NCBI GenBank assembly: GCA_963457525.1
Contig: OY734805.1
Location: forward strand, 982,984-1,046,983
Direction: 5' to 3'
DNA from: Parvibaculaceae bacterium
GTDB lineage: Bacteria; Pseudomonadota; Alphaproteobacteria; JAPOUT01
Length of the DNA stretch: 64,000 bases
Part shown: in pieces, positions 3,760 to 63,435 of the stretch
How positions within the stretch are numbered: position 1 is the first letter of the stretch
How the letters are laid out: every line of letters begins with the position of its first letter
Translations under genes and position numbers: made by a program
Notes under the pieces: model-generated
The model's input: the letters and a program-made list of their open reading frames with translations, nothing else
The model's database searches: none
Told to the model about the DNA's origin: nothing

Positions 3760-4501
3760 CCGCCGAGATTCTCTCCATTATTTCGTCCGACATATCGAAG
3801 TTTGAATAAACTTGCTGGACGTCGTCGCTGTCTTCAAGGGCATCCAGCAATTTGAGCAGCGGGGCCGCATCCTCTTCGCCGACCGCAACGGACGTGTTCG
3901 CGCGCCATGCCAGACGGGTCGACTCCGCCGAACCGAAGCGCGACTCCAGCGCGCCGGAGACATCGTGGAGCGCGTCCGGCTCGCAGAAGAATTCGCAGGA
4001 CCCGTTCTCCAAAACATAATCGCTTGCGCCCGCGTCAATGGCCGCCTCGAGCATTTCGTCGCCTTTGGCGTCTTTGATCGAATGGACAATCGATCCGACC
4101 TGCTCGAACAGGAACGACACCGAACCCCTCTCTCCCATCGAGCCGCCCAGTTTGCCGAAGATGGCGCGCAACTCTCCCGCGGTGCGGTTGCGGTTGTTGG
4201 TGAGCGCTTCGACGATGACGCCGACGCCTCCGGGGGCGAAGCCTTCGTAGCGAATCGATTCATAATTGGCGGCATCGTCGTCGCGGGAGCGCTTGATGGC
4301 GCGCTCGATGTTGTCGTTGGGCATGTTGCACCCGCGCGCGTTGGCAATGGCCGAGCGCAGTCTCGGGTTGGCGGCGGGATCCGGGTTGGAGCGCGCGGCC
4401 GCGGTGATTTCGCGGGCGATCTTGCCGAACATGCCCGCACGTTTTTTGTCTTGCGCGCTTTTGCGGAATTGAATGTTTTTGAACTTTGAATGTCCCGCCA
4501 T
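3752..4501 (-). CDS. yebC: YebC/PmpR-family transcriptional regulator
   Basis: MAGHSKFKNIQFRKSAQDKKRAGMFGKIAREI is the hallmark YebC N-terminus. The position upstream of ruvC is conserved. Confidence 0.9.
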   Translation of the reverse strand: MAGHSKFKNIQFRKSAQDKKRAGMFGKIAREITAAARSNPDPAANPRLRSAIANARGCNMPNDNIERAIKRSRDDDAANYESIRYEGFAPGGVGVIVEALTNNRNRTAGELRAIFGKLGGSMGERGSVSFLFEQVGSIVHSIKDAKGDEMLEAAIDAGASDYVLENGSCEFFCEPDALHDVSGALESRFGSAESTRLAWRANTSVAVGEEDAAPLLKLLDALEDSDDVQQVYSNFDMSDEIMERISADG

Positions 4502-4503
4502 GG

Positions 4504-5325
4504 TTATGCCTCCCAGCGGGGGACGTTCTCGACGAGGTTGGCGCCGATGCGCAAAGGTTCAATTCGAACGGCGAGTCCCGTGCGGTCGTCGGTTTCGATC
4601 AACACGCCGCACAAAGTCGCCTCTCCCAGCGCCGGCGAGAAACTTCCCGAGGACATGGAACGGGTGAACCGCCGCAGGGGTTCGTCGATGTTCATGCCGA
4701 TGACGGAGTTGTAATCGCCGCACATGCCCGCATCGGTTTGGTATGCGGTTCCTCCGGGGAGGATTTGCGCGTCCGCGGTCGGAACGTGGGAATGGGTTCC
4801 GACCACCAGGGAAACATGGCTGTCGCAGAAATGCCCCATTGCCATTTTTTCGGCGGTGGCTTCGGCGTGAAAGTCGACGATGACGGCGTCGCAGTCGCGT
4901 CCGAGTGCGTGGTGTTTCAAGATTTCCTCCATGACCTGAAAGGGGTTGTCGAGAGCTTCCATGAAGATGCGGCCCATCAGATTGACGGTAAGCACGCGCT
5001 TGCCCGCCGCGGTTTCAAGGAGATGGTATCCGGACCCCGGAGTTCCCTGCGGGAAATTCGCCGGACGCAGCACCCGGGGCTCGCGCTCCATGTAGGGGAT
5101 GATTTCGCGCCTGTCCCAGACGTGGTTGCCGGTGGTGATGATGTCGATGCCGGCATCCAGCAGGTTTTCGGAAATTTTTTCGGTGATTCCGAATCCGCCC
5201 GCGGCGTTTTCGCCGTTGGCGATGACGAACTCGGCGCCGAGACGCTTGCGCAGACCGGCAATGCGTTGCAACAGCAACCCCCGGCCGCTTCGCCCCATGA
5301 TGTCTCCGAGAAAAAGAATCTTCAT
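4504..5325 (-). CDS. YmdB-like metallophosphoesterase (TIGR00282 family)
   Basis: MKILFLGDIMGRSGR...GNHVWD...VDFHAE are calcineurin-like motifs. The family assignment is by resemblance. Confidence 0.7.
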   Translation of the reverse strand: MKILFLGDIMGRSGRGLLLQRIAGLRKRLGAEFVIANGENAAGGFGITEKISENLLDAGIDIITTGNHVWDRREIIPYMEREPRVLRPANFPQGTPGSGYHLLETAAGKRVLTVNLMGRIFMEALDNPFQVMEEILKHHALGRDCDAVIVDFHAEATAEKMAMGHFCDSHVSLVVGTHSHVPTADAQILPGGTAYQTDAGMCGDYNSVIGMNIDEPLRRFTRSMSSGSFSPALGEATLCGVLIETDDRTGLAVRIEPLRIGANLVENVPRWEA

Positions 5326-6705: not shown

Positions 6706-7926
6706 TTATATGACCTGCCCGGTTTGACGTTGCACGAACTCGGCCATGAGAGGTAACGCAAGGGCGTATTTGCCGTGACGATTGCGTTGGACAAATCCCT
6801 TTTGAATTAACAGATTCAGCATTTGCACGACATGGCTGGCGGAAAAACTTTTTTCCAAATCTTTTCCGGATTGTTCGGCAATTTCTTGAGCCGTAAATTC
6901 GCCTTCCAAAGTTTCTATGTTTGCAATGACCCGTATGAAATCACGTTGCCTGTCCGTCATCCGATCCCATCTTGGTGCAAAAAAATCTTGATCAAGTTTG
7001 CTTATGATTTCCCGGAACGGAATAGCGGGTTCTTGAAAAACGTCACCTCCGAGTATGTCAAATATCTCTTTGCAAATATATTGCAGGAAATAAGGATAGC
7101 CTCCGGAAAATTGAACGATGCCGTCTATGGTTGGCGCGGAAAGTCGAACCGGATTTTTTGTGAGTTCTATCGGCTTTTCGATTGCATCGCGAGCATCGCG
7201 GTCACTCAATTTGTCGAGGGTCAGAACTTCGAACATTCGCTCCGTATAGGTTCTCGCCTCATTAAGCCTTGGGAATAATACGGGCAACCCGGAAAAAATT
7301 ATCATAACCGGTGTGGTGCTGTGGTCGCGTTGCAGGGTTGAAAAGACATCCAGTAGCGTAGAAAGCGGGTACTGGCCGTTTTTTTCTTGATCCGATAGAT
7401 TTTGCGCTTCATCGTAAGCAAAAATAATCCCCTGTACGCTGCCGCCGTCCAGGAGATTCCGGGCGGTTTGAATCACCGCTTTGAGCTTGTCCCCCGTCAG
7501 CCCCGGCGTGCTTTCATAAATTCCCCATAAATCGCCGAAATCCAGGGGTATTTCGGTTTCCGTCTTCTCGGCGTTTTGGGAAGATGAGAACCCTACCGGG
7601 TTTTTTGATTGCCGTTTGCTGATGCGCGGGGTGAGGACCGAGGTCAGATCCGCCACAATGCGGCGAGCCATGTTTTCTTCCGTCATGCTTGCGGATTCGG
7701 AAATTTCGTTGTTTGCCCAGAGCCAGTGCTGCTCGTATGCAATCGGTTTGAACTCCTCCAACAAAACCGTTTTTCCGATACCGCGCAATCCCGTCAATAT
7801 CAGGTTCTTAAGAACCGGTCTTTGCTCGAGGATTTGCTTGAATTTATCCCGCTCTTTTGTTCTTCCGGCCAGGTAAACGGGTTGCTGCCCTGCCCCCGGA
7901 CGAAAGGGGTTTTGGTGTATTGCCAT
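6706..7926 (-). CDS. AAA+ ATPase of the PF01637/AAA_16 family with C-terminal wHTH-like region
   Basis: It contains NPFRPGAGQQPVYLAGRTKE, Walker A LTGLRGIGKT and Walker B IIFAYDEAQNL. The internal start at 7926 was chosen over the ORF start at 8388. Confidence 0.6.
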   Translation of the reverse strand: MAIHQNPFRPGAGQQPVYLAGRTKERDKFKQILEQRPVLKNLILTGLRGIGKTVLLEEFKPIAYEQHWLWANNEISESASMTEENMARRIVADLTSVLTPRISKRQSKNPVGFSSSQNAEKTETEIPLDFGDLWGIYESTPGLTGDKLKAVIQTARNLLDGGSVQGIIFAYDEAQNLSDQEKNGQYPLSTLLDVFSTLQRDHSTTPVMIIFSGLPVLFPRLNEARTYTERMFEVLTLDKLSDRDARDAIEKPIELTKNPVRLSAPTIDGIVQFSGGYPYFLQYICKEIFDILGGDVFQEPAIPFREIISKLDQDFFAPRWDRMTDRQRDFIRVIANIETLEGEFTAQEIAEQSGKDLEKSFSASHVVQMLNLLIQKGFVQRNRHGKYALALPLMAEFVQRQTGQVI

Positions 7927-8475
7927 GTCTGTGCCCGTTATTAAGTAAAATGTTGAGTAGAGCCTAAATTTAGCACAAATACTAAATTTGTCTAATAAAA
8001 AAATCGAACGCGAAAAACCGCGAAATTCCGAGGAAATATACCCTTCTTCAGCCAAAATCCGTTGCGATTCGCATTTCGACTCTGATTCGCAGAGGCATGT
8101 TTGCAGCCTGATTCGGCGGGCGAAGGGGACCGATTCGCCCCCCGGCCGGATGGTGTTTCGCCGTGGCGGGAATCGCGGGAGCGCAACCAAATCAGGGGTC
8201 TTGGCTCGGACGGGGCTTCTTGGTTGGAGTCGCATCTCAATCCGTCCGCGTCCTTTCCTCGCGCCGGAAAAAGGAGAAAGGAACCCGCCTTTTCGGACCG
8301 GCTTCCCCTTGACTTGCGTGGCTGTTGGGTTCACTCTTATGGGGTGAGACCTCGAATGTCCAAGGAACTCGGGGAACTCGCGCATCACACCACCGCCAAC
8401 GCATTCGGGTTACCTTAACACTGTGAGTATTTCCTCCTGCGCTTCTCTTTCGGATTTTGACGCCGCTTCTCGAAA
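7927..8475. other. 550-bp non-coding region upstream of tkt (AT-rich 5' part, GC-rich 3' part; candidate promoter, leader or sRNA)
   Basis: No credible ORF is present. The segment 7930-8000 is AT-rich and the rest is GC-rich with stem-forming runs. Confidence 0.3.
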
Positions 8476-10491
8476 ATGAACGAATCCCCTAACGAAGCAA
8501 GCGCGATTTCACACGCCGATATGGCGAATGCGTTGCGTGTTCTCGCCGTTGACGCGGTCGAGCGTGCCGCGAGCGGGCATCCGGGCATGCCGATGGGGAT
8601 GGCGGATGTGGCGTGTGTTTTGTTCACGCGATTTTTGAAATTTGATTCCCGGGCACCCGACTGGCTTGACCGTGACCGTTTTGTTTTATCGGCAGGGCAC
8701 GGTTCGATGCTGTTGTATGGATTGTTGCATTTGTGCGGCTATGAGGACATGCCGATGGACGAGATTGAGAAGTTTCGCCAGTTGAACTCGAAAGCCGCCG
8801 GACATCCGGAGTGGGGGGTGGCAGGAGGCATCGAGACCACCACCGGACCGCTCGGGCAGGGGCTTGCCAACGCCGTCGGGATGGCTTTGGGCGAGCGCGT
8901 CCTGAACGCCCGATTCGGCGATGACATTGTGAATCATCGCACATACGCGCTGGTTTCGGACGGAGACCTGATGGAAGGAATTTCCCATGAGGCGATTGCC
9001 CTTGCGGGGCATCTAAAGCTCGGCCGCCTGATTGTTTTGTGGGACGACAATCGCATTTCCATTGATGGCGAGACTTCATTGGCGGACAGCTCCAATGTCG
9101 GCATGCGTTTTAAATCCGCAGGCTGGCATGTTGCAGAGGTGGACGGACATGATCCCGAAGCAATCGAAGCCGCAATCGCCGCAGCCATCAAGACGGATGA
9201 ACCAAGCCTTGTGGCGTGCCGGACGATTATCGGTTACGGCGCGCCGAGCAAGCAGAACACCGCGGCTTGTCACGGGGCGCCCCTGGGAGAAGAAGAAGCC
9301 GCCGCCGCACGCAAGCAGCTGGGATGGCAGCACGTGCCGTTTGTCATACCCGAGCGGATTGTCGATGCATGGCGGTTGGCGGGCTTGCGGGGAGGACGCG
9401 ATCGTTCCGCCTGGCAAAAGCGCTTCGATGCTTTGCCCGAAGATGTCAACGAATCGTTTCGACGCATGATGGAGGGCGATTTGCCGTGCGGTTTGCCGGA
9501 AGCGTTTCGCAAGCACAAGAATGCGGTCGCACAGGCGAAGGAGGCAATTGCGACTCGCACGGCGTCACTTAACACGCTCGAAGCCATCGCGGACGTTGTG
9601 CCGGAACTGCTGGGCGGCTCGGCGGATTTGACCGGATCAACGGCGACATGTCCCGCAAAAATGTCGGCGATAACGCCGCAGGATTTTTCCGGAAGTTTTA
9701 TTCATTACGGCGTTCGCGAGCACGGGATGGTCGCGGCGATGAACGGCCTGGCGTTGCACGGGGGATGTATTCCCTACGGCGGAACCTTTCTTGTATTCGC
9801 GGACTATTGCCGGCCGGCTTTGCGCCTGGCGGCTTTGATGGGCGTGCGCGTGATATTGGTCGCAACGCATGATTCCATCGGCGTCGGCGAGGACGGACCA
9901 ACGCACCAGCCGGTCGAGCATCTCGCGAGTTTGCGCGCGATTCCAAACTTGCTCGTATTACGTCCGGCGGACGCTCTTGAGACCGCCGAATGCTGGGAAG
10001 TTGCACTCGCGCAAAAACATCGTCCGTCGGTTTTGGTGTTGTCTCGGCAGAAATTGCCGGCGGTTCGAACATCCATTCCGGACGAGAATCCCTGTTTGCG
10101 GGGGGCTTATGAATTATCGGGTTCGAGCGGGAACGCGCAAGTGAGTTTGCTGGCATCGGGATCGGAAGTGTCCATCGCACTCGAGGCCCAGGAAATTTTG
10201 CTGGGACGGGAGATATCGTCTAGGGTTGTTTCCGTTCCGTGTTTGAATCTTTTTGCCGAACAGGAACAGGCCTACCAGGAGGACGTGCTGGGTCCGGGGA
10301 CGATTCGCATTGCGGTGGAGGCCGGTGTTCGTTACGGCTGGGGCGCGTATGTCGGGGTTGAAGGCGACTTTTTGGGCATGCGTTCGTTTGGCGCGAGCGC
10401 GCCTGCGGGGGATTTATACAAGCACTTCGGCATCACCGCCGAAGAATTGGCAAAGTTGGCGCAAGAGCGTCTTGAGCGACGTTCAACTTAA
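8476..10491 (+). CDS. tkt: Transketolase
   Basis: TPP-binding GHPG, LGQGLANAVGMALGE and the full 671-aa length are present. Confidence 0.95.
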   Translation: MNESPNEASAISHADMANALRVLAVDAVERAASGHPGMPMGMADVACVLFTRFLKFDSRAPDWLDRDRFVLSAGHGSMLLYGLLHLCGYEDMPMDEIEKFRQLNSKAAGHPEWGVAGGIETTTGPLGQGLANAVGMALGERVLNARFGDDIVNHRTYALVSDGDLMEGISHEAIALAGHLKLGRLIVLWDDNRISIDGETSLADSSNVGMRFKSAGWHVAEVDGHDPEAIEAAIAAAIKTDEPSLVACRTIIGYGAPSKQNTAACHGAPLGEEEAAAARKQLGWQHVPFVIPERIVDAWRLAGLRGGRDRSAWQKRFDALPEDVNESFRRMMEGDLPCGLPEAFRKHKNAVAQAKEAIATRTASLNTLEAIADVVPELLGGSADLTGSTATCPAKMSAITPQDFSGSFIHYGVREHGMVAAMNGLALHGGCIPYGGTFLVFADYCRPALRLAALMGVRVILVATHDSIGVGEDGPTHQPVEHLASLRAIPNLLVLRPADALETAECWEVALAQKHRPSVLVLSRQKLPAVRTSIPDENPCLRGAYELSGSSGNAQVSLLASGSEVSIALEAQEILLGREISSRVVSVPCLNLFAEQEQAYQEDVLGPGTIRIAVEAGVRYGWGAYVGVEGDFLGMRSFGASAPAGDLYKHFGITAEELAKLAQERLERRST

Positions 10492-10494
10492 GAG

Positions 10495-12015
10495 ATGGAG
10501 AAAATAATGGTCACAGAAGCACCTTCGATGATGGATATGACTATGGATTTGCTTGGAAAAGCGGGCAAGAATGGAATGACAGTTTTAGACATAGCGACGA
10601 CTCTTTCACGACAAAATCAAAAAATTATTACAAAAAAACAGATTGGAGGAGTGTTTCATAGATTGCGCCGTGATTATCCCGTAGATATTAAAAATTTAGG
10701 AGGGGGAAAATTTGCTCTGTATCCAAAGAAAATGCCCTCGATAATGGATGAAGTTATGCATTTTCTTGATGTTGCAGGCGAACGCGGGCGGACGATTTCG
10801 GATATGGCGGATATACTTTCGCGGCAAAGAAAAAAAATCGTTACAAAGAAGCAAATCAGAAATGCGATTGATAGGTTGCGTGAATCCAGTAAACTCAGCG
10901 GTAATAAAGAACTCATCGAAAGCAACGGAGGGGAAGTGTTTGCTCTACGTAAAAAGAAAACCTCACGTAAAAGTGCGCATAAAAACACCTTGAAGACAGT
11001 GCCTATAAGAGTTGCGATTAACGGTTTTGGCAGAATCGGCCGGATGGTTGTGCGCGCAATAGTCGAGAGCGGGCGCAAGGACATTGAGGTTGTTGCGATT
11101 AACGATCTCGCGCAACCGCAGCAGGCGGCGCATTTGTTGCGTTATGATTCCGCCCATGGAGCGTTCTCCCATCCCGTATCTTTAAGCGGCGATGTTTTGA
11201 GCGTTGGCACGGCGTGCAAGAAGGCGAAGCTTTTCTCCGAGAGGGACCCGTCCAAACTTCCCTGGGGAAAGCTGAAGGTGGATGTGGTTCTCGAATGCAC
11301 CGGACGTTTCACCGCCCGCGACAAGGCCGCCGCGCATCTGGACGCCGGAGCCAAGCGCGTGCTTGTCTCGGCGCCGGCGACCAACGCCGATCTCACCGTC
11401 GTTTACGGGGTTAATCACAAATTGCTGCGCAAGGATCACCGGATTGTTTCGAACGCTTCGTGCACGACCAATTGCCTTGCGCCGGTCGCGCAGTTGATGC
11501 ACCAGCTCTGCGGCATTGAGCACGGACATATGACGACCATTCATGCGTATACCGGCGACCAGGCCCTCGTGGACATGCCGCACTCCGATCCGCGCCGCGC
11601 CCGCGCCGCCGCAGCCTCGATGATTCCGACGACCACCGGGGCCGCCCGCGCGGTCTCTCTCGTGCTGCCCGAACTCAAAGGCCGTCTGGACGGTGCCGCG
11701 GTGCGTGTTCCGGTGTTGAATGTTTCCGTTGTCGACCTCACTTTCCGTTCGGCAAAGGACACGGATGTTGCCTCGGTCAACCGCGCGATGAAGCGCGCCG
11801 CATCCTCGAAGAAGTGGCAGGGCATTCTGGGCGTCGTGGAGGAGCCGCTGGTATCGGTGGACTTCAACCACAATTCGCACTCTTCCATCTTCGATACCAC
11901 CCAAACGCAGATGCTCGGCAAGCGGCTGGTTCGTGTTGTTTCGTGGTACGACAACGAGTGGGGCTTTGCCAACCGGATGGGGGATGTTGCGGTGTGCCTG
12001 GGCGCACTGGGATAG
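10495..12015 (+). CDS. gap: Glyceraldehyde-3-phosphate dehydrogenase with ~165-aa N-terminal tandem winged-helix (H1/H5-like) extension
   Basis: The C-terminal 335 aa carry INGFGRIGR ... SNASCTTNCLAPV ... WYDNEWG, canonical for GAPDH. The N-terminal part is AT-rich, stop-free and contains two repeats. An alternative start is ATG 10507, which has a better SD. Confidence 0.85.
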   Translation: MEKIMVTEAPSMMDMTMDLLGKAGKNGMTVLDIATTLSRQNQKIITKKQIGGVFHRLRRDYPVDIKNLGGGKFALYPKKMPSIMDEVMHFLDVAGERGRTISDMADILSRQRKKIVTKKQIRNAIDRLRESSKLSGNKELIESNGGEVFALRKKKTSRKSAHKNTLKTVPIRVAINGFGRIGRMVVRAIVESGRKDIEVVAINDLAQPQQAAHLLRYDSAHGAFSHPVSLSGDVLSVGTACKKAKLFSERDPSKLPWGKLKVDVVLECTGRFTARDKAAAHLDAGAKRVLVSAPATNADLTVVYGVNHKLLRKDHRIVSNASCTTNCLAPVAQLMHQLCGIEHGHMTTIHAYTGDQALVDMPHSDPRRARAAAASMIPTTTGAARAVSLVLPELKGRLDGAAVRVPVLNVSVVDLTFRSAKDTDVASVNRAMKRAASSKKWQGILGVVEEPLVSVDFNHNSHSSIFDTTQTQMLGKRLVRVVSWYDNEWGFANRMGDVAVCLGALG

Positions 12016-32351: not shown

Positions 32352-33203
32352 TTAGATGGAGTAGTCCGGTTCTTGCGGGAACATGTGGTCCATTTCCAGT
32401 GCGGGCTCTTCGGATTGGTCGGGACAGTGAATGAGCCGCGCGGGAACGCCGACGGCGGTGCAATAGGGCGGGACGCTGCGCAGCACTATTGAGCCCGCGC
32501 CGATGCGCGCGCACTCGCCGATTTCGATGTTGCCCAATACCGTTGCGCCCGCCGAGAGCAGAACACCCCGACGAACTTTCGGATGGCGGTCGCCGCACTC
32601 CTTGCCGGTGCCGCCAAGTGTCACGCCGTGCAGCATGGAGACATTGTCCTCAACAACGGCGGTTTCGCCGATGACGACGCCGGTGGCGTGGTCAATCATG
32701 ATGCCCTTGCCTATCCGTGCGCCCGGATGGATGTCGACGCCGAAGCGCTCGGAGGAGCGGCTTTGCAAATGCAGCGCCAGCGTGCGTCGTTGTGACAGCC
32801 ATAGTTGCCGGGTGATTCGGTAGGCCTGCAGCGCGTGGAAGCCTTTGTAATAGAGGAAGGGCGTGAGTCGTTCGGTGCAAGCCGGATCGCGGTCAAGGAC
32901 GGCGTCCATGTCCCCGAGGCAGGCGTCCAGAATGCTTGCGTCGGTTTCGAGGGAGCCGGCGAGGTCGGCCCGTAACGTGTCTGCATCAAGGATGTCGTCG
33001 GCAAGTTTTCCGGCAAGGAGGTATCCGAGGGCGTCGGCGAAATTTTCGCGCTCGAGAATGGAGTCGCTCAAAAACTTTTTCAACTCCTTCTCGCGGTCGA
33101 TAATCTCGCGGGCTGCGTCTTGGAGCTCGCGCCAAAGCGAGTCCGCCGCTGCGGCCGGCGCGTGTGCGTTCTGCTTGCTCTGTTCGGGTATGGAAAGGGA
33201 CAT
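32352..33203 (-). CDS. cysE: Serine O-acetyltransferase
   Basis: The SATase N-domain and the hexapeptide repeat region GARIGKGIMIDHATGVVIGETAVVEDNVSMLHGVTLGG are present. Confidence 0.85.
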   Translation of the reverse strand: MSLSIPEQSKQNAHAPAAAADSLWRELQDAAREIIDREKELKKFLSDSILERENFADALGYLLAGKLADDILDADTLRADLAGSLETDASILDACLGDMDAVLDRDPACTERLTPFLYYKGFHALQAYRITRQLWLSQRRTLALHLQSRSSERFGVDIHPGARIGKGIMIDHATGVVIGETAVVEDNVSMLHGVTLGGTGKECGDRHPKVRRGVLLSAGATVLGNIEIGECARIGAGSIVLRSVPPYCTAVGVPARLIHCPDQSEEPALEMDHMFPQEPDYSI

Positions 33204-33430
33204 GCGCTTACCTCGTTCACCCCCTCTGTCGTTTTATACGTCTATCATAGACCAGAATGGCTTCGAAGGGAAATTGTTTTCGAGGAGGGAAAAATATCCG
33301 CGCTGTGAAAACCTCTTATGCTCCGAAATTTGATATGTAAGGCGAGGCATTCGGGCCTCTGTTCACAAAATGTAGAATCTGCCATTTTTGGATTCGCCAT
33401 CTTAGGTTGCGAAAGAGTGTTTGGTGTTTG

Positions 33431-33742
33431 TTATTGTTTTTCTTTTTCATCTCTTCCAAAAGCAACAGTAATACGCTGAAACACTCTCATTACAGGAGAA
33501 AAGAAAACAACGAAAAAAAGTATCTGAAGAATCCCTATTACCAAAGGGGCGCCCAAATTTGTTGCATCCGGTAAATATACAATGTCAATGCCAATGACAA
33601 TTGGGAGTAAAAATACAAGAGCTACATTGTAAAATTCTTCTTCCCATCTCTCATTATCGTTAGATTTTTCACTAATAGCCTTGTCTTCTTTACCCGGTTT
33701 TTCTGAATCGAGGTCGCTCAATATTCCATCGGTGTTAGCCAT
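33431..33742 (-). CDS. Small 2-TM membrane protein (candidate toxin partner of the Panacea protein)
   Basis: The 103-aa product has an acidic N-terminus and two hydrophobic helices, VALVFLLPIVIGIDIVYL and LVIGILQILFFVVFFSPVM. It overlaps the Panacea gene by 8 bp and lies in AT-rich DNA. Confidence 0.5.
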   Translation of the reverse strand: MANTDGILSDLDSEKPGKEDKAISEKSNDNERWEEEFYNVALVFLLPIVIGIDIVYLPDATNLGAPLVIGILQILFFVVFFSPVMRVFQRITVAFGRDEKEKQ

Positions 33743-34190
33743 TGTGTTTCCGCCTTTTCATTCGATTTTCATATTCTTTCTTAATCAGGTCACGAGGTAT
33801 TGCAATTCCGCGTTTCCTTTTTTCGTACACCTCGTGCCAAGCACCTTTTTCCCAGTGAGTGAATGACACGAGTGCCGCATCTGTTATTCCTTCGGCCGCA
33901 TCAATGGTTTCTTTCAAAATTTCAAATTCGTCTCCCTTGGTTACGCCACCATTTTTAGGAAATATATGACCGATAGAACTGGCGCCGTAAACTTTGCAGT
34001 AATGATATAACTCCGGTTCTACAGGTCCATGCTGCCACGCTTCAAAATTTTCCCTTATGAGATCTTTATCCGTCCTGCCCAGATAATACATGTGCGCGAT
34101 ATACAAGAGTTTTTGCAGCCTCAGGTTGGTTATTTTCCAGCCCGACAAATTGCAAAGTGTCTTGCCTGCGTCGATAGATGAAATTGTCAT
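33735..34190 (-). CDS. Panacea-domain (DUF4065, SocA-like) protein
   Basis: LRLQKLLYIAHMYYLGRTDKDLIRENFEAWQHGPVEPELYHY closely matches the Panacea/SocA core. The later motif ...FTHWEKGAWHEVY is also present. Confidence 0.75.
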   Translation of the reverse strand: MTISSIDAGKTLCNLSGWKITNLRLQKLLYIAHMYYLGRTDKDLIRENFEAWQHGPVEPELYHYCKVYGASSIGHIFPKNGGVTKGDEFEILKETIDAAEGITDAALVSFTHWEKGAWHEVYEKRKRGIAIPRDLIKKEYENRMKRRKHNG

Positions 34191-34234
34191 GTCGTTTCCT
34201 TTTTACAGATTCTACAGTGATTCGATGCAGGATG

Positions 34235-35164
34235 TCATTGTATCAGGCGGGTGAATCCATTCGCCGAATGGAGAGCGCATCGTGTGTTCCTTTTGTAGTG
34301 GTGACCATCCAAAAGGCTGCCGTATCGGCGAATATTCTCGCTTAGTTCTTCTTTCTCTCCATAGTCGTTGATTGCGAGGTGAATATCTCCATCGCGCAAC
34401 TCCCGCATCGGGATGCTATACCCGTGAGAATGCCATCTCGATATGCTTCCCAAGATTTCGGCGATGCTTTCGGCTCTTTCTTGTTTCATTTCCAGGGTTA
34501 CATCTTTCTTTTTGGTTTCCGTCTTTGCCCAATTTTTAAATTTATATTCGACCAGCCACTTTTTTATCAGTTCTTTTGAGCGTTCCATTGCTTGTTTAAC
34601 AGCAAACATATCTGCGGGGTCAAAGTTTTTAATCAAGAATAAAAGCTCCGCATCGCTCAAATCCCTTTCCTTGCTTTCCTTGATTAATTCGTCGTACTGA
34701 CGAAGATATCCTGCTCCGCGGATCCATTGTCCCTCGTCGTTTCTAAAGTACGGGTCTATCGGCCCCAATACGGAGTGATAATCCATGTATATGTTGTCGC
34801 CTGAAAGAACCAGCACCGTGCCGGCGGAATAAGCGTGGTTTGGAACGATGAAATCGACAATTTCAAAGTTATGCCGAAATACACGGCAGATGCGCTCTGC
34901 AACTTCTACGAATCCTCCGGGTGTTGCAATCATCACGACGAGGCGTTTGCTTAGCTCCCCCTTTTGTTTTTTCAAGAATTCAATATCGCGGCGAATCATG
35001 TCATCCAACCCTTGGTCAATGTGTCCGCAGATGGATATGACCTCTCCTTCGAGAATGTTTTCTATTTTTTCCCGAAATTGCGACAACGAAAATTCAATGA
35101 ATTGATGGACTTTTATGGTGTTTTGCATGGTTTTCTCCTTCCTGGAACGCGAGCGTATGGGCAT
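34235..35164 (-). CDS. SDH-family serine protease (PF01972 serine-dehydrogenase proteinase; ClpP/S49 fold)
   Basis: VVMIATPGGFVEVAERICRVFRHNFEIVDFIVPNHAYSAGTVLVLSGDNIYMDYHSVLGPIDP carries the nucleophile in the A-Y-S-A-G context. An alternative start is ATG 35128. Confidence 0.7.
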   Translation of the reverse strand: MPIRSRSRKEKTMQNTIKVHQFIEFSLSQFREKIENILEGEVISICGHIDQGLDDMIRRDIEFLKKQKGELSKRLVVMIATPGGFVEVAERICRVFRHNFEIVDFIVPNHAYSAGTVLVLSGDNIYMDYHSVLGPIDPYFRNDEGQWIRGAGYLRQYDELIKESKERDLSDAELLFLIKNFDPADMFAVKQAMERSKELIKKWLVEYKFKNWAKTETKKKDVTLEMKQERAESIAEILGSISRWHSHGYSIPMRELRDGDIHLAINDYGEKEELSENIRRYGSLLDGHHYKRNTRCALHSANGFTRLIQ

Positions 35165-35484
35165 CCCTACCCGAGATTAAGCAAGTATATTTATTTGCAG
35201 GGAGCGCCTCCGCCGACTCAAAAAGACACAACGTCTTTGCGCGGCGGTTCTTGGCAATTTATTCGCAGTGTGAAGTTCTAATCTTCTTCTGATTCTCCGA
35301 ATTTGAAGGAAACCCTACCTCGAAAAGATTCAAAAGTCAAGATCTTTTTTTTTGGTTGATGGCGCTTGGCAGAATTTCTACGGCTTGTTGATGCGAATTG
35401 GCTTGATTGGCGCCGTTTCCATTTTTTGCAGATATTCGGGGAAGATGATATAATGCATGTAATTGAAATAAAATCCATGGTAGA

Positions 35485-36489
35485 GTGATTCCTATGAATA
35501 CAATACGAATGGTTGTAGCGACCCTGCCGATGGCGTTTCTAACCGCATGCGGCGGCGGAGGCGGCGGAGGGGGTGCGGCATCGGCTCCTGCTCCTGCTCC
35601 TACTCCTACAATAGACGATGATAGCGTTCCCCCAGACTGGAGCTTGCTGACCGAGTTTGCAGAGCACGCGGATTCTCCAGTCCTGGAAGCCGTTAGAGGG
35701 ATCACAAGAGCGATGGGCGCGGATTTATTTTTAAGTCCGTTTGCGGAAGCGGGAAATTTAAACGAGACAAACCATACGAAGAATCTTGGAGTTTACTTTA
35801 CTACGTTGCCAGGTGGCGGTAATAGTCTGGTATTTAACATAGGTGTTTACGATGATATTTCCCTGGTGGAAGCCAATAATTTTTGGGCTACTAGAGATTA
35901 TACCTCCGTGACTACAACCGGTGTAGTCGTTGGTGATGTTACTCTTGCACGAAACAGATTAACCGGAACAAGATACCAAGGCATGTCTCGCATGGCAATC
36001 CAAACCTTTTCAGGGTGGTTGGACGGCAGTGTTTTTGGAACTTCGCGAATAGCGTTTGCGTATAGAACACCTGCTGAAGACTACAGGTTTGTTTCTCATA
36101 CTTCCGGTGTGCCCAGCAATTCTAGGCCAAGCGCAACGGGAACGGAAACTTCGGCAACATGGGAAGGTGTCACTGTCGCCTCAATAAAAGCCGATAGGGA
36201 ATTCATTCGAGGTGATGCAACTATTACTATCTCGGACCTTACAAATGCAGATGTCAATTTGAGGTTTGATAATTGGCATGATTTGGATAACGAAGAGTTA
36301 TCAACTATGCCGGCAATCACTTATGACAATTTGACGCTTACCAACGGGAGTTTTGGAGGATCCTCTCCCGACCAGGTCTTCGGACACTTTTATGGAACAG
36401 ACCATAACGAGGTCGGTGGATACTTCAACACTATGGATGTTACGGGAGCTTTTGGCGGGACGAGGCAACCGGCGGAATCATCCGAATAA
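35485..36489 (+). CDS. Surface lipoprotein with TbpB-C-lobe-like (PF01298-type) β-barrel domain
   Basis: The lipobox is AFLTAC, followed by a Gly/Pro-Ala linker. The C-terminal motif GHFYGTDHNEVGGYFNTMDVTGAFGGTRQ resembles the G.FYG...E.GG.F....GAFG.KRQ signature of TbpB, fHbp and HpuA. GC content is ~47%. Confidence 0.55.
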   Translation: MIPMNTIRMVVATLPMAFLTACGGGGGGGGAASAPAPAPTPTIDDDSVPPDWSLLTEFAEHADSPVLEAVRGITRAMGADLFLSPFAEAGNLNETNHTKNLGVYFTTLPGGGNSLVFNIGVYDDISLVEANNFWATRDYTSVTTTGVVVGDVTLARNRLTGTRYQGMSRMAIQTFSGWLDGSVFGTSRIAFAYRTPAEDYRFVSHTSGVPSNSRPSATGTETSATWEGVTVASIKADREFIRGDATITISDLTNADVNLRFDNWHDLDNEELSTMPAITYDNLTLTNGSFGGSSPDQVFGHFYGTDHNEVGGYFNTMDVTGAFGGTRQPAESSE

Positions 36490-36524
36490 AACCGTTAAAA
36501 ATTTTTTCGATGTGCGGTTTTGCC

Positions 36525-37742
36525 TTAATCCAGTAAAAGCGCATCTATGCTCTCGCCTTTGTCGCGGGCTTTGTCAAACGGGGGACGGACGGCAAACGCA
36601 TCGGCATGCGCGAGCATCGACAGGCGCGCGCTGTCCTGGCTTTCGAATGGCGTAATAAAATAAGCCTGTTCGTCGGCATCCCATATAAGTTTTGCGCGCA
36701 TATATTCCTGTCGCTCGTTGTTGGCGGGGAGCGAACGAGTCAAACGCGCGCAAACGCGGGAAAGTCCGTTCACGGTTGCGCCTTGCATTTTCGCAAGCGC
36801 CGGCCGTAAAAATATCTCGGCGCACACCATCGTCGATACCGGATTGCCGGGCATTCCAAGCGCACGTGTTTTCTCCCGCATTGCAAACAACAAGGGCTTT
36901 CCCGGGCGCACGGCAACGCCGTGAAAGCAAATGTCAAAGCCGCTTGCCTCAAGGGCGGAGCGGGTGAGATCGTGCTCGCCGACGGAGGCGCCTCCCATGG
37001 TCACGAGGAAGTCACAGTCTTTCGCCTTATCGATGGCTTTGCCGATGGCATTGACGTCGTCGGGCGCGATGCCGATATCGAGCGCATCGCAGTCGAGTTT
37101 TTCGAGGAATGCAACCATCCCGATGCTGTTAGAAGAGGGCAGTTTGTTTTTGTTGTTTTCTTCAACGGCCGCAAGCTCGTTGCCGAGCGCGAGCACCGCG
37201 ACCCGGGGTTTGCGGCGCACATCCACATCCACATGTCCCATTGCCGCAAGAAGAGCGAGATCGCGTTCGCGCAGACGATGTCCGGCGTTGAGGAGTTCGT
37301 CGCCTTCGGCGAAGTCGCTGCCCTTACGGCGGACATAACGGCCGGTTTGCGCGGCTTGTGAAAAAGTGACGCGCTTGCCGTCCTGTCGCGCGTTTTCCTG
37401 GATGAGTATGGCATCGGCGCCGCGGGGTAGCCGCGCACCGGTAAAGATGCGCATGGTTTCGCCCGCCTGAATGGCCGCATCGGTTTGTTCGTCTCCGGCT
37501 GCAATCGATCCGGCAAGCGAAAGACTCGCGCCCGTTTGCGCGACATCTTCGCTGCGAACGGCGTAGCCGTCCATAGCGGAAACATCAAAGGCGGGGTGGC
37601 TTCGATGCGCGCATGCGTTCTCGCACAAGACTCTCCCGCGCGCCCGCACAAGCGAGACGCTCTCCGGGGGCAATGGCTCGATGCTCTCCAGCATCTGCTC
37701 GAGAGCGGCGTCCACCGACAACAACTTGCGTGCCTGTGTCAT
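36525..37742 (-). CDS. moeA: Molybdopterin molybdotransferase MoeA
   Basis: MoeA N, MoCF-binding (MGGASVGEHD-like) and C-terminal domains are present in a 405-aa product. Confidence 0.9.
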   Translation of the reverse strand: MTQARKLLSVDAALEQMLESIEPLPPESVSLVRARGRVLCENACAHRSHPAFDVSAMDGYAVRSEDVAQTGASLSLAGSIAAGDEQTDAAIQAGETMRIFTGARLPRGADAILIQENARQDGKRVTFSQAAQTGRYVRRKGSDFAEGDELLNAGHRLRERDLALLAAMGHVDVDVRRKPRVAVLALGNELAAVEENNKNKLPSSNSIGMVAFLEKLDCDALDIGIAPDDVNAIGKAIDKAKDCDFLVTMGGASVGEHDLTRSALEASGFDICFHGVAVRPGKPLLFAMREKTRALGMPGNPVSTMVCAEIFLRPALAKMQGATVNGLSRVCARLTRSLPANNERQEYMRAKLIWDADEQAYFITPFESQDSARLSMLAHADAFAVRPPFDKARDKGESIDALLLD

Positions 37743-61540: not shown

Positions 61541-62683
61541 ATGTGGATCCACGAACACCAAAACTGGACGGACCTTATATGGGAAGCCGAAGCCCTTGCT
61601 TCTAAATTGGCGGATGTAAGCCACCGCCAGGGGGTTCTGCTTGGTCGAATGGAAGGGCTAGGGTTTGAATTAAAACGCGAGGCCAACCTCAATACGCTGA
61701 CCAATGATGTGGTTAAATCCTCGGCCATCGAAGGTGAAATTCTAAATCCGGAAGAAGTTCGATCTTCCATTGCCCGCAGGCTGGGCATGGACTTTGCCGG
61801 GCTTGTTCCCGCAAGCCGTGACGTGGAAGGCATTGTTGAGATGATGCTGGATGCCACGCAAGAGCTTTCCAAGCCATTGACGAGGAAGCGCATGTTTGCC
61901 TGGCACGCAGCCATGTTTCCGACGGGGATGAGTGGAATGCATCGGATCACAGTTGGCAATTGGCGTACCGCGGAGGTGGATCCCATGCGGGTTGTTTCCG
62001 GTCCTATCGGCAAAGAAAAGGTTCATTTTGAAGCACCGGGCGCAGACCGCCTGGACAAGGAAATGAAAACGTTTCTGGATTGGTTTAATAGCAGAAGAGA
62101 CATCAACCCCTTGATTAAAGCGGGCATTGCCCACCTGTGGTTTGTCACCATTCATCCTTTTGAAGACGGCAACGGGCGTATTGCCAGGGCGATCAGTGAC
62201 ATGGCAATGGCTCGCGCCGATGGAACGAAAGATCGTTTTTACAGTTTGTCCTCCCAGATCGCGGCAGAACGCAAGCACTATTACAATCAGCTTGAGAAGC
62301 AGCAACGTGCGACACCTGATATCACGGGCTGGCTTTCATGGTTTTTGGATTGTTTTGGGCGGTCCATTGCCAATGCCGATATCACGCTCGGCAATGTTCT
62401 TTTCAAGGCGCGTCTCTGGGATTTTATCAACCGGAAGCCCGTGAATGATAACCAACGTTTAATCGTTAACCGGATGCTTGAGGATAATTTTGAAGGCTTC
62501 ATGAACACCTCCAAATACGCCAAGATGGCCAAATGCTCAAAAGACAAGGCATACCGGGATATTCAGGAATTGAAAGAAAGAAAAATTTTCATACAAAACC
62601 CCGGTGCCGGACGCAGTACGAGTTACAGATTGCCGGATCGAGAGGAGACGCGGCATTTGCTTGGCGGGACCTTAAATGAATGA
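61541..62683 (+). CDS. Fic-family protein with DUF4172 N-terminal domain
   Basis: The Fic motif HPFEDGNGRIARA is present. The N-terminus MWIHEHQNWTDLIWEAEAL is DUF4172-like. Confidence 0.85.
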   Translation: MWIHEHQNWTDLIWEAEALASKLADVSHRQGVLLGRMEGLGFELKREANLNTLTNDVVKSSAIEGEILNPEEVRSSIARRLGMDFAGLVPASRDVEGIVEMMLDATQELSKPLTRKRMFAWHAAMFPTGMSGMHRITVGNWRTAEVDPMRVVSGPIGKEKVHFEAPGADRLDKEMKTFLDWFNSRRDINPLIKAGIAHLWFVTIHPFEDGNGRIARAISDMAMARADGTKDRFYSLSSQIAAERKHYYNQLEKQQRATPDITGWLSWFLDCFGRSIANADITLGNVLFKARLWDFINRKPVNDNQRLIVNRMLEDNFEGFMNTSKYAKMAKCSKDKAYRDIQELKERKIFIQNPGAGRSTSYRLPDREETRHLLGGTLNE

Positions 62684-62707
62684 CTGCCGATTTGTCTGTG
62701 TGTTCGC

Positions 62708-62960
62708 CGAAAAAGCCCCGACAAAATCTTTTGGATAATGCCGGGGCTCCCTTCGAGTTGGGTTTGTCCGTTTGATTGGTTTACAGACGTGTGCCATCTG
62801 TTCGTACTCCGGCAACGTAATCAAGCTGTTTTTCCGGTAAATCCGGGCACTTATGCAATTGCCATCGGAAAACGGGTGGTTTCGGGGAGTGGAAAAACCG
62901 CCGGAACGCGGGAAAAAATTGCGAATCGCTTGTGATTTTTGCCGGAAATGCGCCGGTAAT
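62708..62960 (+). repeat. Copy B of the ~230-bp conserved non-coding element
   Basis: The blocks gaaaaagccccgacaaaatcttttggataatgccggggctcccttcgagttgggtt ... ggtttacagac ... tttttccggtaaatccggg ... aattgccatcggaaaacgggtgg ... tgatttttgccgg are shared with copy A. Confidence 0.65.
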
Positions 62961-63435
62961 TCGGGGATCTTCGATGCGGCTTGGGGCGTGGACGCGCCCC
63001 ATAACGACCGGGCAACGGGAATCATGCCGATTCGCCCGCCTCCGGAGATGCAAAAAACGGCCGATAACGCCGCTTCCATCGTCAAATATCCCGACCAAAC
63101 ACGGGGGGCGCTCCTGCTGTTTCACGGGTCGCGATTTTCTTGGTCGCACGCTCACGGGCATGTTGTAAATTCCCCGGATTTTCGCCGGAAATCGCGCTAA
63201 CTTCCCCGAAATTATCGCAAAAACAGGCGGTTTTCCGTCGCCGGTTGCCGCACGCCCCGCGCCCCAGGGTGAATTCATACCGGTTAAAACTGTGTCATTC
63301 TTGCCACACGATTTTGATAAAAATACGATTCGGGCGTTTTTCTGTTGGCATTGCGCGGAAAATTGCACATTGTGTATGTGTGGCAAGTAAGCCACGATTC
63401 TTACCTAACCAAAATATGAGGATGGAGAAATACAA

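Follow-up and report, generated by a model that had tools for sequence, protein, structure and literature searches.

Between the genes moeA and cysE of the analyzed stretch of DNA, a 64,000-nucleotide (nt) segment of contig OY734805.1 from a Parvibaculaceae bacterium that is called the window in the following, an islet of low GC content carries three adjacent genes on the minus strand. They encode a serine protease of the SDH family with a ClpP fold, a Panacea-domain protein (PanA), and a small protein with two predicted transmembrane (TM) segments, which is called the TM protein. An initial annotation had proposed that these three genes form a self-contained module of toxin, adaptor, and protease. 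Our results argue for another arrangement: PanA and the TM protein probably constitute a toxin-antitoxin (TA) pair of the PanA-PanT type, which was inserted in a variable slot beside an orphaned protease, and the pair and the protease would be two independent accessory units. The islet as a whole would be a mosaic of independently acquired accessory genes at a variable spot between moeA and cysE.

The identities of the genes are clear, the two units are distributed independently of each other in other genomes, and selection on the protease is purifying. The three-gene arrangement is not an assembly artefact, as shown by its recurrence in several sponge metagenomes and in metagenome-assembled genomes (MAGs) of NCBI, on 22 or more contigs altogether. 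Ten contigs were compared and turned out to be 99.5-99.8% identical.

PanA and its membrane partner

The three minus-strand genes of the initial annotation and the overlap of 8 base pairs (bp) between the Panacea gene and the TM gene (ATGGCTAA) were borne out by the open reading frames (ORFs) and the sequence. PanA had rightly been described as a bare Panacea domain: the Pfam family PF13274 (SocA_Panacea) matched with an E-value of 3.8e-16 and 60.4 bits (cutoff 25.7) over profile positions 1-113 of 113. The GPV signature is present within the sequence WQHGPVEPELY, and its residues G55, P56, and V57 are invariant among 12 PanA homologues with 45-73% identity. A protein identical to PanA is annotated as a DUF4065 protein in MAGs of Hyphomicrobiales. 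With the NCBIfam model SocA_antitoxin (NF047745), PanA scored 90.4 bits, which is under the equivalog cutoff of 190 bits.

For the TM protein, hydropathy analysis recovered the two hydrophobic segments that had been predicted, both in the C-terminal part (residues 36-60 and 60-88). The N-terminal half is acidic and charged, and D, E, and K are frequent among its first 35 residues. No family of Pfam, NCBIfam, PHROG, or PADLOC matched the TM protein, and a word-indexed homology search returned its own cluster alone. An exhaustive phmmer search with the single sequence through 1.84 billion representative proteins yielded seven relatives; the close family is small.

The contexts of PanA relatives were surveyed at 36 loci, 30 of which were added by a metagenome scan. 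At four loci (L006, L007, L009, and L011), PanA homologues with 52-73% identity are each followed by an overlapping gene for a TM-protein homologue of 107-118 amino acids (aa), and these downstream proteins are 23-49% identical to the TM protein of the window and have the same architecture. The contexts of these PanA homologues are unrelated, with different upstream genes; neighbours are, for instance, ABC transporter, pgm/pfkB, or HipA genes. TM homologues directly downstream of PanA homologues were found at L006 (two pairs), L007, L009, L011, L102, L105-L108, and L117, and the same pair is present in the Bordetella phage vB_BaM-IFTN6, in which the TM homologue follows a "SocA family protein". 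The suggestion that the Panacea and TM proteins are an antitoxin/toxin-like pair is thus strengthened by the recurrence of the two-gene unit at no fewer than 12 other loci from different metagenomes and in the Bordetella phage. At nearly all loci with enough downstream sequence, the protein encoded after PanA is small and has a charged N-terminus and TM segments (mostly two) at its C-terminus. This type of partner persists even for PanAs with 29-48% identity, and the partners of PanAs with 29-34% identity are related to a protein annotated as PanT in the E. coli phage PhiR47_1.

When a partner within 100 nt and the same architecture in at least two species are taken as characteristic of a two-gene TA-like system, the PanA-TM pair belongs to this group. 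A six-frame search with a hidden Markov model (HMM) of the protease did not detect an SDH protease at any of the 36 loci. Likewise, 32 upstream ORFs of 19 non-redundant loci were compared with Pfam; 27 families matched, and neither a ClpP nor an SDH family was among the 25 that were listed. Because the pair recurs in unrelated contexts and in a phage, Panacea and the small two-TM protein represent an autonomous, mobile two-gene module. One metagenomic contig of 6.4 kb (L006) contains two divergent copies of PanA with a two-TM gene, at 480-1,326 on the minus strand and at 4,001-4,760 on the plus strand.

PanA-PanT systems with membrane-depolarizing toxins have been described for the clusters T3 (E. 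coli STEC O31) and T12 (Bartonella apis, PanT WP_077993242.1), and experiments have validated membrane-depolarizing PanTs in which a charged N-terminus precedes TM helices at the C-terminus (Kurata et al. 2022, PMC8832971). PanA neutralizes by direct binding and complex formation, independent of ClpXP and Lon, and the GPV motif was reported to be critical for neutralization (PMC8832971). For one membrane PanT, it was predicted that Panacea contacts the region before the TM segment, and mutagenesis supported this prediction (PMC10440598). The pair of the window resembles these systems in several respects. The antitoxin consists essentially of a Panacea domain, carries the GPV motif, and lacks an N-terminal domain; its gene precedes that of the toxin, and the two overlap slightly. 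Both chromosomes and temperate phages harbour the pair, and the partner, a toxin by analogy, is small, with a charged N-terminal half and two TM helices at the C-terminus. Cluster look-ups did not reveal a RefSeq accession that could be cross-referred to cluster T12.

Based on these likenesses, the pair would be a two-gene, type II-like PanA-PanT system, which entered the slot downstream of the protease as a block of 925 bp. The two C-terminal helices of the TM protein would insert into the inner membrane and dissipate the membrane potential, and the translationally coupled PanA would neutralize it by directly binding its soluble, charged N-terminal part. We infer this direct neutralization, as well as any activity of the protease. 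The pair would work without a dedicated protease, and it may have its own promoter, for which a promoter-like site at the junction of the protease and PanA genes is a candidate (Table 1). A consensus scan found seven promoter-like sites in the region versus 5.4 that were expected by chance, and the site is therefore weak evidence.

An alternative explanation is that the two-TM protein is harmless, e.g. an immunity or exclusion factor, that PanA has another role, and that the pair is not a TA system. Several results weigh against the toxin that we propose and fit this alternative. In E. coli, 8 of 25 predicted PanTs were not toxic (PMC8832971), the TM family does not match any characterized family, and its comparison with the E. 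coli-type PanT using hhalign yielded a probability of 0.1% and an E-value of 0.65. In addition, one population variant (L095, at the equivalent of window position 33,519) lacks 1 bp in a run of T within the TM gene, which shortens the product to 83 aa. Nevertheless, a harmless protein seems rather unlikely, as the TM gene strictly and directly follows PanA, usually with an overlap, over an identity range of 23-73%, the module is found in a temperate phage as well, and the TM protein has the architecture of the validated membrane-depolarizing PanTs (PMC8832971). The toxicity of the TM protein is thus predicted by analogy with these proteins. The deletion in L095 concerns three similar contigs and reflects either inactivation of the putative toxin or a sequencing error at the homopolymer.

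The protease and its usual partners

The gene upstream of PanA encodes, as had been annotated, a ClpP-fold protease with the nucleophile context AYSAG. The Pfam family PF01972 (SDH_protease) matched with an E-value of 1.5e-14 and 54.1 bits (cutoff 31.3), NfeD1b_N also matched, CLP_protease matched weakly, and the serine of AYSAG (Ser101) was aligned to the catalytic serine of ClpP. An AlphaFold2 (AF2) model had a predicted local distance difference test score (pLDDT) of 91.8. The best folds in the PDB that were found with Foldseek were the 1510-N stomatin-specific protease (6m4b), SppA, and ClpP, with a probability of 1.00 versus 6m4b, 4kwb, and ClpP. The protease shares the ClpP/crotonase-like fold and a nucleophilic serine in a G/A-x-S-x-G turn with PF01972, SppA, and NfeD/1510-N proteins. 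However, it belongs to a distinct cytoplasmic subfamily of 295-300 aa with a long helical C-terminal extension, and elsewhere this subfamily is characteristically paired with a gene for a peptide of 56-89 aa. The score with the NCBIfam equivalog Clp_like_SDH was 59 bits versus a cutoff of 250 bits. All 39 family-invariant residues are retained. The ATG at 35,128 is preceded by AGGAGA, and the resulting length agrees with all homologues; an alternative in-frame ATG upstream, at 35,164, would result in 309 aa. Calls of 254 aa in two NCBI MAGs were considered as truncations, but they are merely other start-codon calls for the same gene sequence.

The protease gene is present at the identical moeA-cysE site in sister genomes, namely Hyphomicrobiales MAGs from sponge metagenomes (L001-L005 and L012). 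The sister proteases are 79-83% identical to that of the window at the amino acid level, and the sister products of cysE and moeA are 87-89% identical. PanA, the TM gene, and the lipoprotein gene that also lies in the islet of the window are all missing at these sister loci. In blastn comparisons of the moeA-cysE interval, homology spans moeA, breaks, and restarts about 260 bp upstream of the protease gene. In the comparison with L001-L005, it then ends about 15-22 bp past the protease stop codon and restarts about 90 bp upstream of cysE, leaving the PanA-TM pair as a segment specific for the window (Table 1).

The ratio of nonsynonymous to synonymous substitution rates (dN/dS) of the protease versus its sister copies was 0.10-0.16. 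This is similar to the flanking housekeeping genes, for which the values were 0.12-0.13 (cysE) and 0.11-0.14 (moeA), and thus the protease is under purifying selection. Because it is kept and under purifying selection in the sister lineages, the protease is maintained with or without the PanA-TM pair. In our proposal, it would already have been at this site in the common ancestor with the sister lineages.

Relatives of the protease were surveyed at 146 loci (L013-L091 and L134-L202), i.e. 79 genomic loci from many phyla and 67 viral contigs. The family comprises more than 4,400 clusters, and no fewer than 596 species-representative genomes carry it. The protease stop codon is almost always abutted by a gene for a hydrophilic protein of 56-89 aa with the C-terminal motif [LF]P[YF][SG]..W. 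An HMM of this peptide was positive at 62 of the 79 genomic loci (E <= 1e-3), 37 of which had been used for building the HMM, and a small ORF abuts the protease stop codon at 60 of 66 viral-contig loci. Upstream of the protease, 45 of the 79 genomic loci encode a small basic protein that ends with ...GGLKGGKARA..LS.EERSEIARKAAxARW. Searches of Pfam, NCBIfam, and PADLOC with the peptide and the small basic protein did not reveal a family, and PADLOC also gave no match for representatives of the protease, the peptide, and the basic protein from other genomes. The protease module is matched by PHROG 11747, the function of which is unknown, and is often flanked by insertion sequence (IS) transposases.

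The window protease lacks both canonical partners, the abutting peptide and the upstream basic protein. The peptide HMM did not yield a match in any frame of the 64-kb window, and PanA holds the downstream position. We propose that the protease would have lost these module partners.

Between moeA and the intact protease gene, the sister genomes contain a fragment from the C-terminus of a second protease copy (equivalent to 32 aa), followed by a peptide gene. The peptide gene is intact, of the LPYSS type, and encodes 76-79 aa (L001 5,344-5,650; L002-L005 and L012; L004 5,154-5,503). Judging from the sequences, fragment and peptide gene are evidently the remnant of a second, tandem copy of the module; in the window, the lipoprotein gene replaces this stretch. 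This peptide gene, about 360 bp upstream of the protease, is the sole one of the sister genomes, and a basic protein is missing. The slot downstream of the protease contains different DNA in each sister lineage. In L004 (6,818-7,147), L005, and L012 (5,775-6,104), it encodes a 109-aa coiled-coil protein with LRADH(E/G)KAVGG repeats, one C-terminal TM segment (tail-anchored), and a weak CCDC90/DUF1640-like match. Runs of N are present in the region downstream of the protease in L002 and L003.

On the E. coli IncI2 plasmid pSM107_MCR (NZ_CP130669.1, 37,482-39,323; L135), a 300-aa protease with 34% identity and a 56-aa peptide are encoded directly downstream of a CI-like repressor of the LexA family in a lambdoid region. 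In phage lambda, rexAB is located at the position after CI, and other lambdoid phages have exclusion or defence genes there. The place of the plasmid-encoded pair after the CI-like repressor therefore suggests a prophage-encoded exclusion or defence role. A literature search for links of the SDH/ClpP-like family to defence or TA systems yielded neither relevant work nor a published function. The protease-peptide module may represent a hitherto undescribed module with a defence- or TA-like character.

Panacea genes beside the protease

The proximity of the two units in the window was the basis for the view of the initial annotation that the TM protein is a toxin, PanA a SocA-like proteolytic adaptor, and the SDH protease the enzyme that degrades the toxin (or PanA). 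All three genes share the same strand, 44 bp separate the protease gene from PanA, PanA and the TM gene overlap by 8 bp, a terminator-like site is missing between the protease and PanA genes, and the arrangement is stable over the contigs of the population. There is also a precedent, as SocA is a Panacea protein that acts as a ClpXP adaptor (PMC8832971). In the SocAB system of Caulobacter crescentus (type VI), the antitoxin likewise contains a Panacea domain, and control of the toxin involves a protease. However, the PanA of the window is below the SocA equivalog cutoff (90.4 versus 190 bits), its partner is a small membrane protein and not a clamp inhibitor of the SocB type, and the neighbouring protease, a ClpP-fold enzyme of the SDH/S49-like type, has no unfoldase and is unlinked to PanA in other genomes. 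Moreover, the tested PanAs bind directly and independently of ClpXP and Lon (PMC8832971).

The distribution of the genes largely refutes this view. The triplet was found in one species-level population, and it was missing in the sister genomes, at the 36 PanA loci, and at the 146 protease loci. No member of the TM-protein family was detected at any of the protease loci surveyed, and other conserved partners of the protease family are present at most of the 146 loci. Because the sister genomes keep the protease alone, the PanA loci lack the protease, and the protease has other partners, the triad is not supported, and we regard it as highly improbable. The genes are unlinked outside this genome, which is the finding that the initial annotation itself had named as speaking against its proposal.

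Several observations do not fit easily with two units that are fully independent. The gap of 44 bp between the protease and PanA genes, on the same strand, contains no terminator-like site, and therefore read-through from the protease to PanA is possible; co-transcription of the protease and the PanA-TM pair and some functional cross-talk are thus possible as well. One of the 79 genomic protease loci, L051 (4,477-6,110), has a Panacea gene that overlaps the protease start, with the usual peptide after the protease; when 145 neighbouring ORFs were scanned with Pfam, at most this one genomic locus turned out to contain Panacea. Among the 67 viral loci, one (L142) has a separate pair of PanA and a 157-aa protein upstream of the protease-peptide pair. 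Taken together, Panacea is found beside the protease family in three independent lineages (window, L051, and L142) of about 147 that were sampled, in three different arrangements, which by a rough estimate is more than random placement would give. In addition, the lineage of the window has lost the usual peptide partner of the protease and gained PanA. Such an excess would be expected if both units belonged to a pool of defence and addiction genes that collect in shared hotspots.

The gene at the protease start is variable also at other loci. At L030 (4,480-6,082), a gene for a ThsB-type TIR protein overlaps the protease start at the position at which L051 has Panacea. At L017, L023, and on a Rhizobium gallicum plasmid (L134), the module follows multiubiquitin/ThiF-JAB/DUF6527 genes (a ubiquitin-like system), and the DUF6527 gene, preceded by ThiF-JAB, overlaps the protease start. 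In sequence terms, this variability looks like modular partner swapping.

It is conceivable that PanA serves both neighbours, as the antitoxin of the TM protein and as a substitute for the lost small partner of the protease, so that the islet would be a toxin-antitoxin-toxin system with a growth-inhibiting protease. The Panacea gene of L051 overlaps the protease start, the usual place of the small basic protein, and the TIR gene of L030 has that same position. An effector-like role of the protease would also fit with the location of the L135 pair after the CI-like repressor, a typical prophage slot for defence and exclusion, and the window protease is under purifying selection although it is without its canonical partners. 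On the other hand, the PanA of the window clusters with PanAs whose sole conserved partner is the TM protein, and its similarity to the L051 PanA is remote (50% identity over 44 aa only). The conservation of the protease in sister genomes without PanA or basic protein indicates that it is probably not strongly toxic alone, and the literature search did not find experimental evidence on this protease family. On balance, such a double role seems quite unlikely. That PanA was recruited to control the ClpP-fold protease besides the membrane toxin, in a hybrid that formed after the protease had lost its partner, we consider very unlikely. If this were true, the SDH protease, with or without the peptide, would be conditionally toxic or a defence effector, and its small partner could be swapped for Panacea, as in L051, or for a TIR protein, as in L030. 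The two independent units, a PanA-PanT-type pair and an orphaned protease, are thus preferred.

Borders and further contents of the islet

In windows of 300 nt, the GC content drops from 0.61-0.65 before 33,200 to 0.37-0.48 across 33,200-36,350, and it is back at 0.59 or higher past about 36,800 (surroundings about 0.60). This tract is the longest and deepest low-GC run within the 64 kb. The drop directly after cysE had been recognized correctly in the initial annotation, but the right border does not lie at 35,484: the low GC content includes the lipoprotein gene and ends at moeA, and the right edge of the islet is at about 36,520. The features of the islet are summarized in Table 1.

Table 1. 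Features of the islet and its flanks (positions of the window)
Feature	Position	Strand	Remarks
cysE	32,352-33,203	minus	left flank of the islet
Window-specific segment 1	33,295-34,219		925 bp; holds exactly the PanA-TM pair (blastn versus L001-L005)
Putative PanT-type membrane toxin (TM protein)	33,431-33,742	minus	103 aa; start overlaps the PanA stop codon
PanA-type antitoxin	33,735-34,190	minus	151 aa; Panacea/DUF4065 domain with little else
Promoter-like site ATGACA-18 nt-TAGAAT	34,209-34,238	minus	10 of 12 consensus matches; protease/PanA junction
SDH-family ClpP-fold serine peptidase	34,235-35,128	minus	297 aa; nucleophile Ser101 in AYSAG
Window-specific segment 2	35,387-36,528		carries the lipoprotein gene (blastn versus sister loci)
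Lipoprotein gene	35,485-36,489	plus	334 aa; GC 0.44-0.53; divergent; in low-GC, genome-specific segment
moeA	36,525-37,742		right flank of the islet; low-GC tract ends there

The lipoprotein has a lipobox (LTAC) and a poly-Gly (Gly/Ala-rich) linker that is encoded by a GGC repeat at 35,549-35,570. Its C-terminal barrel is weakly TbpB-like (Pfam TbpB_B_D, E-value 8e-4, below the cutoff), and its length in population variants varies from 327 to 333 aa. A 66-aa ORF at 35,278-35,478 was not taken as a gene; it belongs to no family, and the homology to sister genomes spans only a part of it.

The accessory nature and the horizontal acquisition of the islet DNA, which had also been suggested in the initial annotation, are supported by its low GC content and by the fact that the sister genomes lack it at this position. 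Neither repeats (direct or inverted) at the borders of the insertions nor tRNA genes were convincingly identified when they were looked for. Rfam gave no match in the region 32,800-36,900 at a permissive threshold, and the PADLOC models did not match any of the four islet proteins. Shorter patches of low GC content (0.48-0.50) are present at 7,000-8,000, 10,000-11,000, and 62,000-63,000 of the window and may represent further accessory insertions.

In summary, the proposed PanA-PanT-type pair would add one more Panacea-membrane-toxin pair to a large known family, and the islet illustrates that neighbouring genes in a low-GC region can give the false impression of an operon. Of greater interest is the protease-peptide module, a widespread and apparently uncharacterized unit of two or three genes that is found on chromosomes, on plasmids, and in prophages, and that could merit an examination for a role in defence or addiction.

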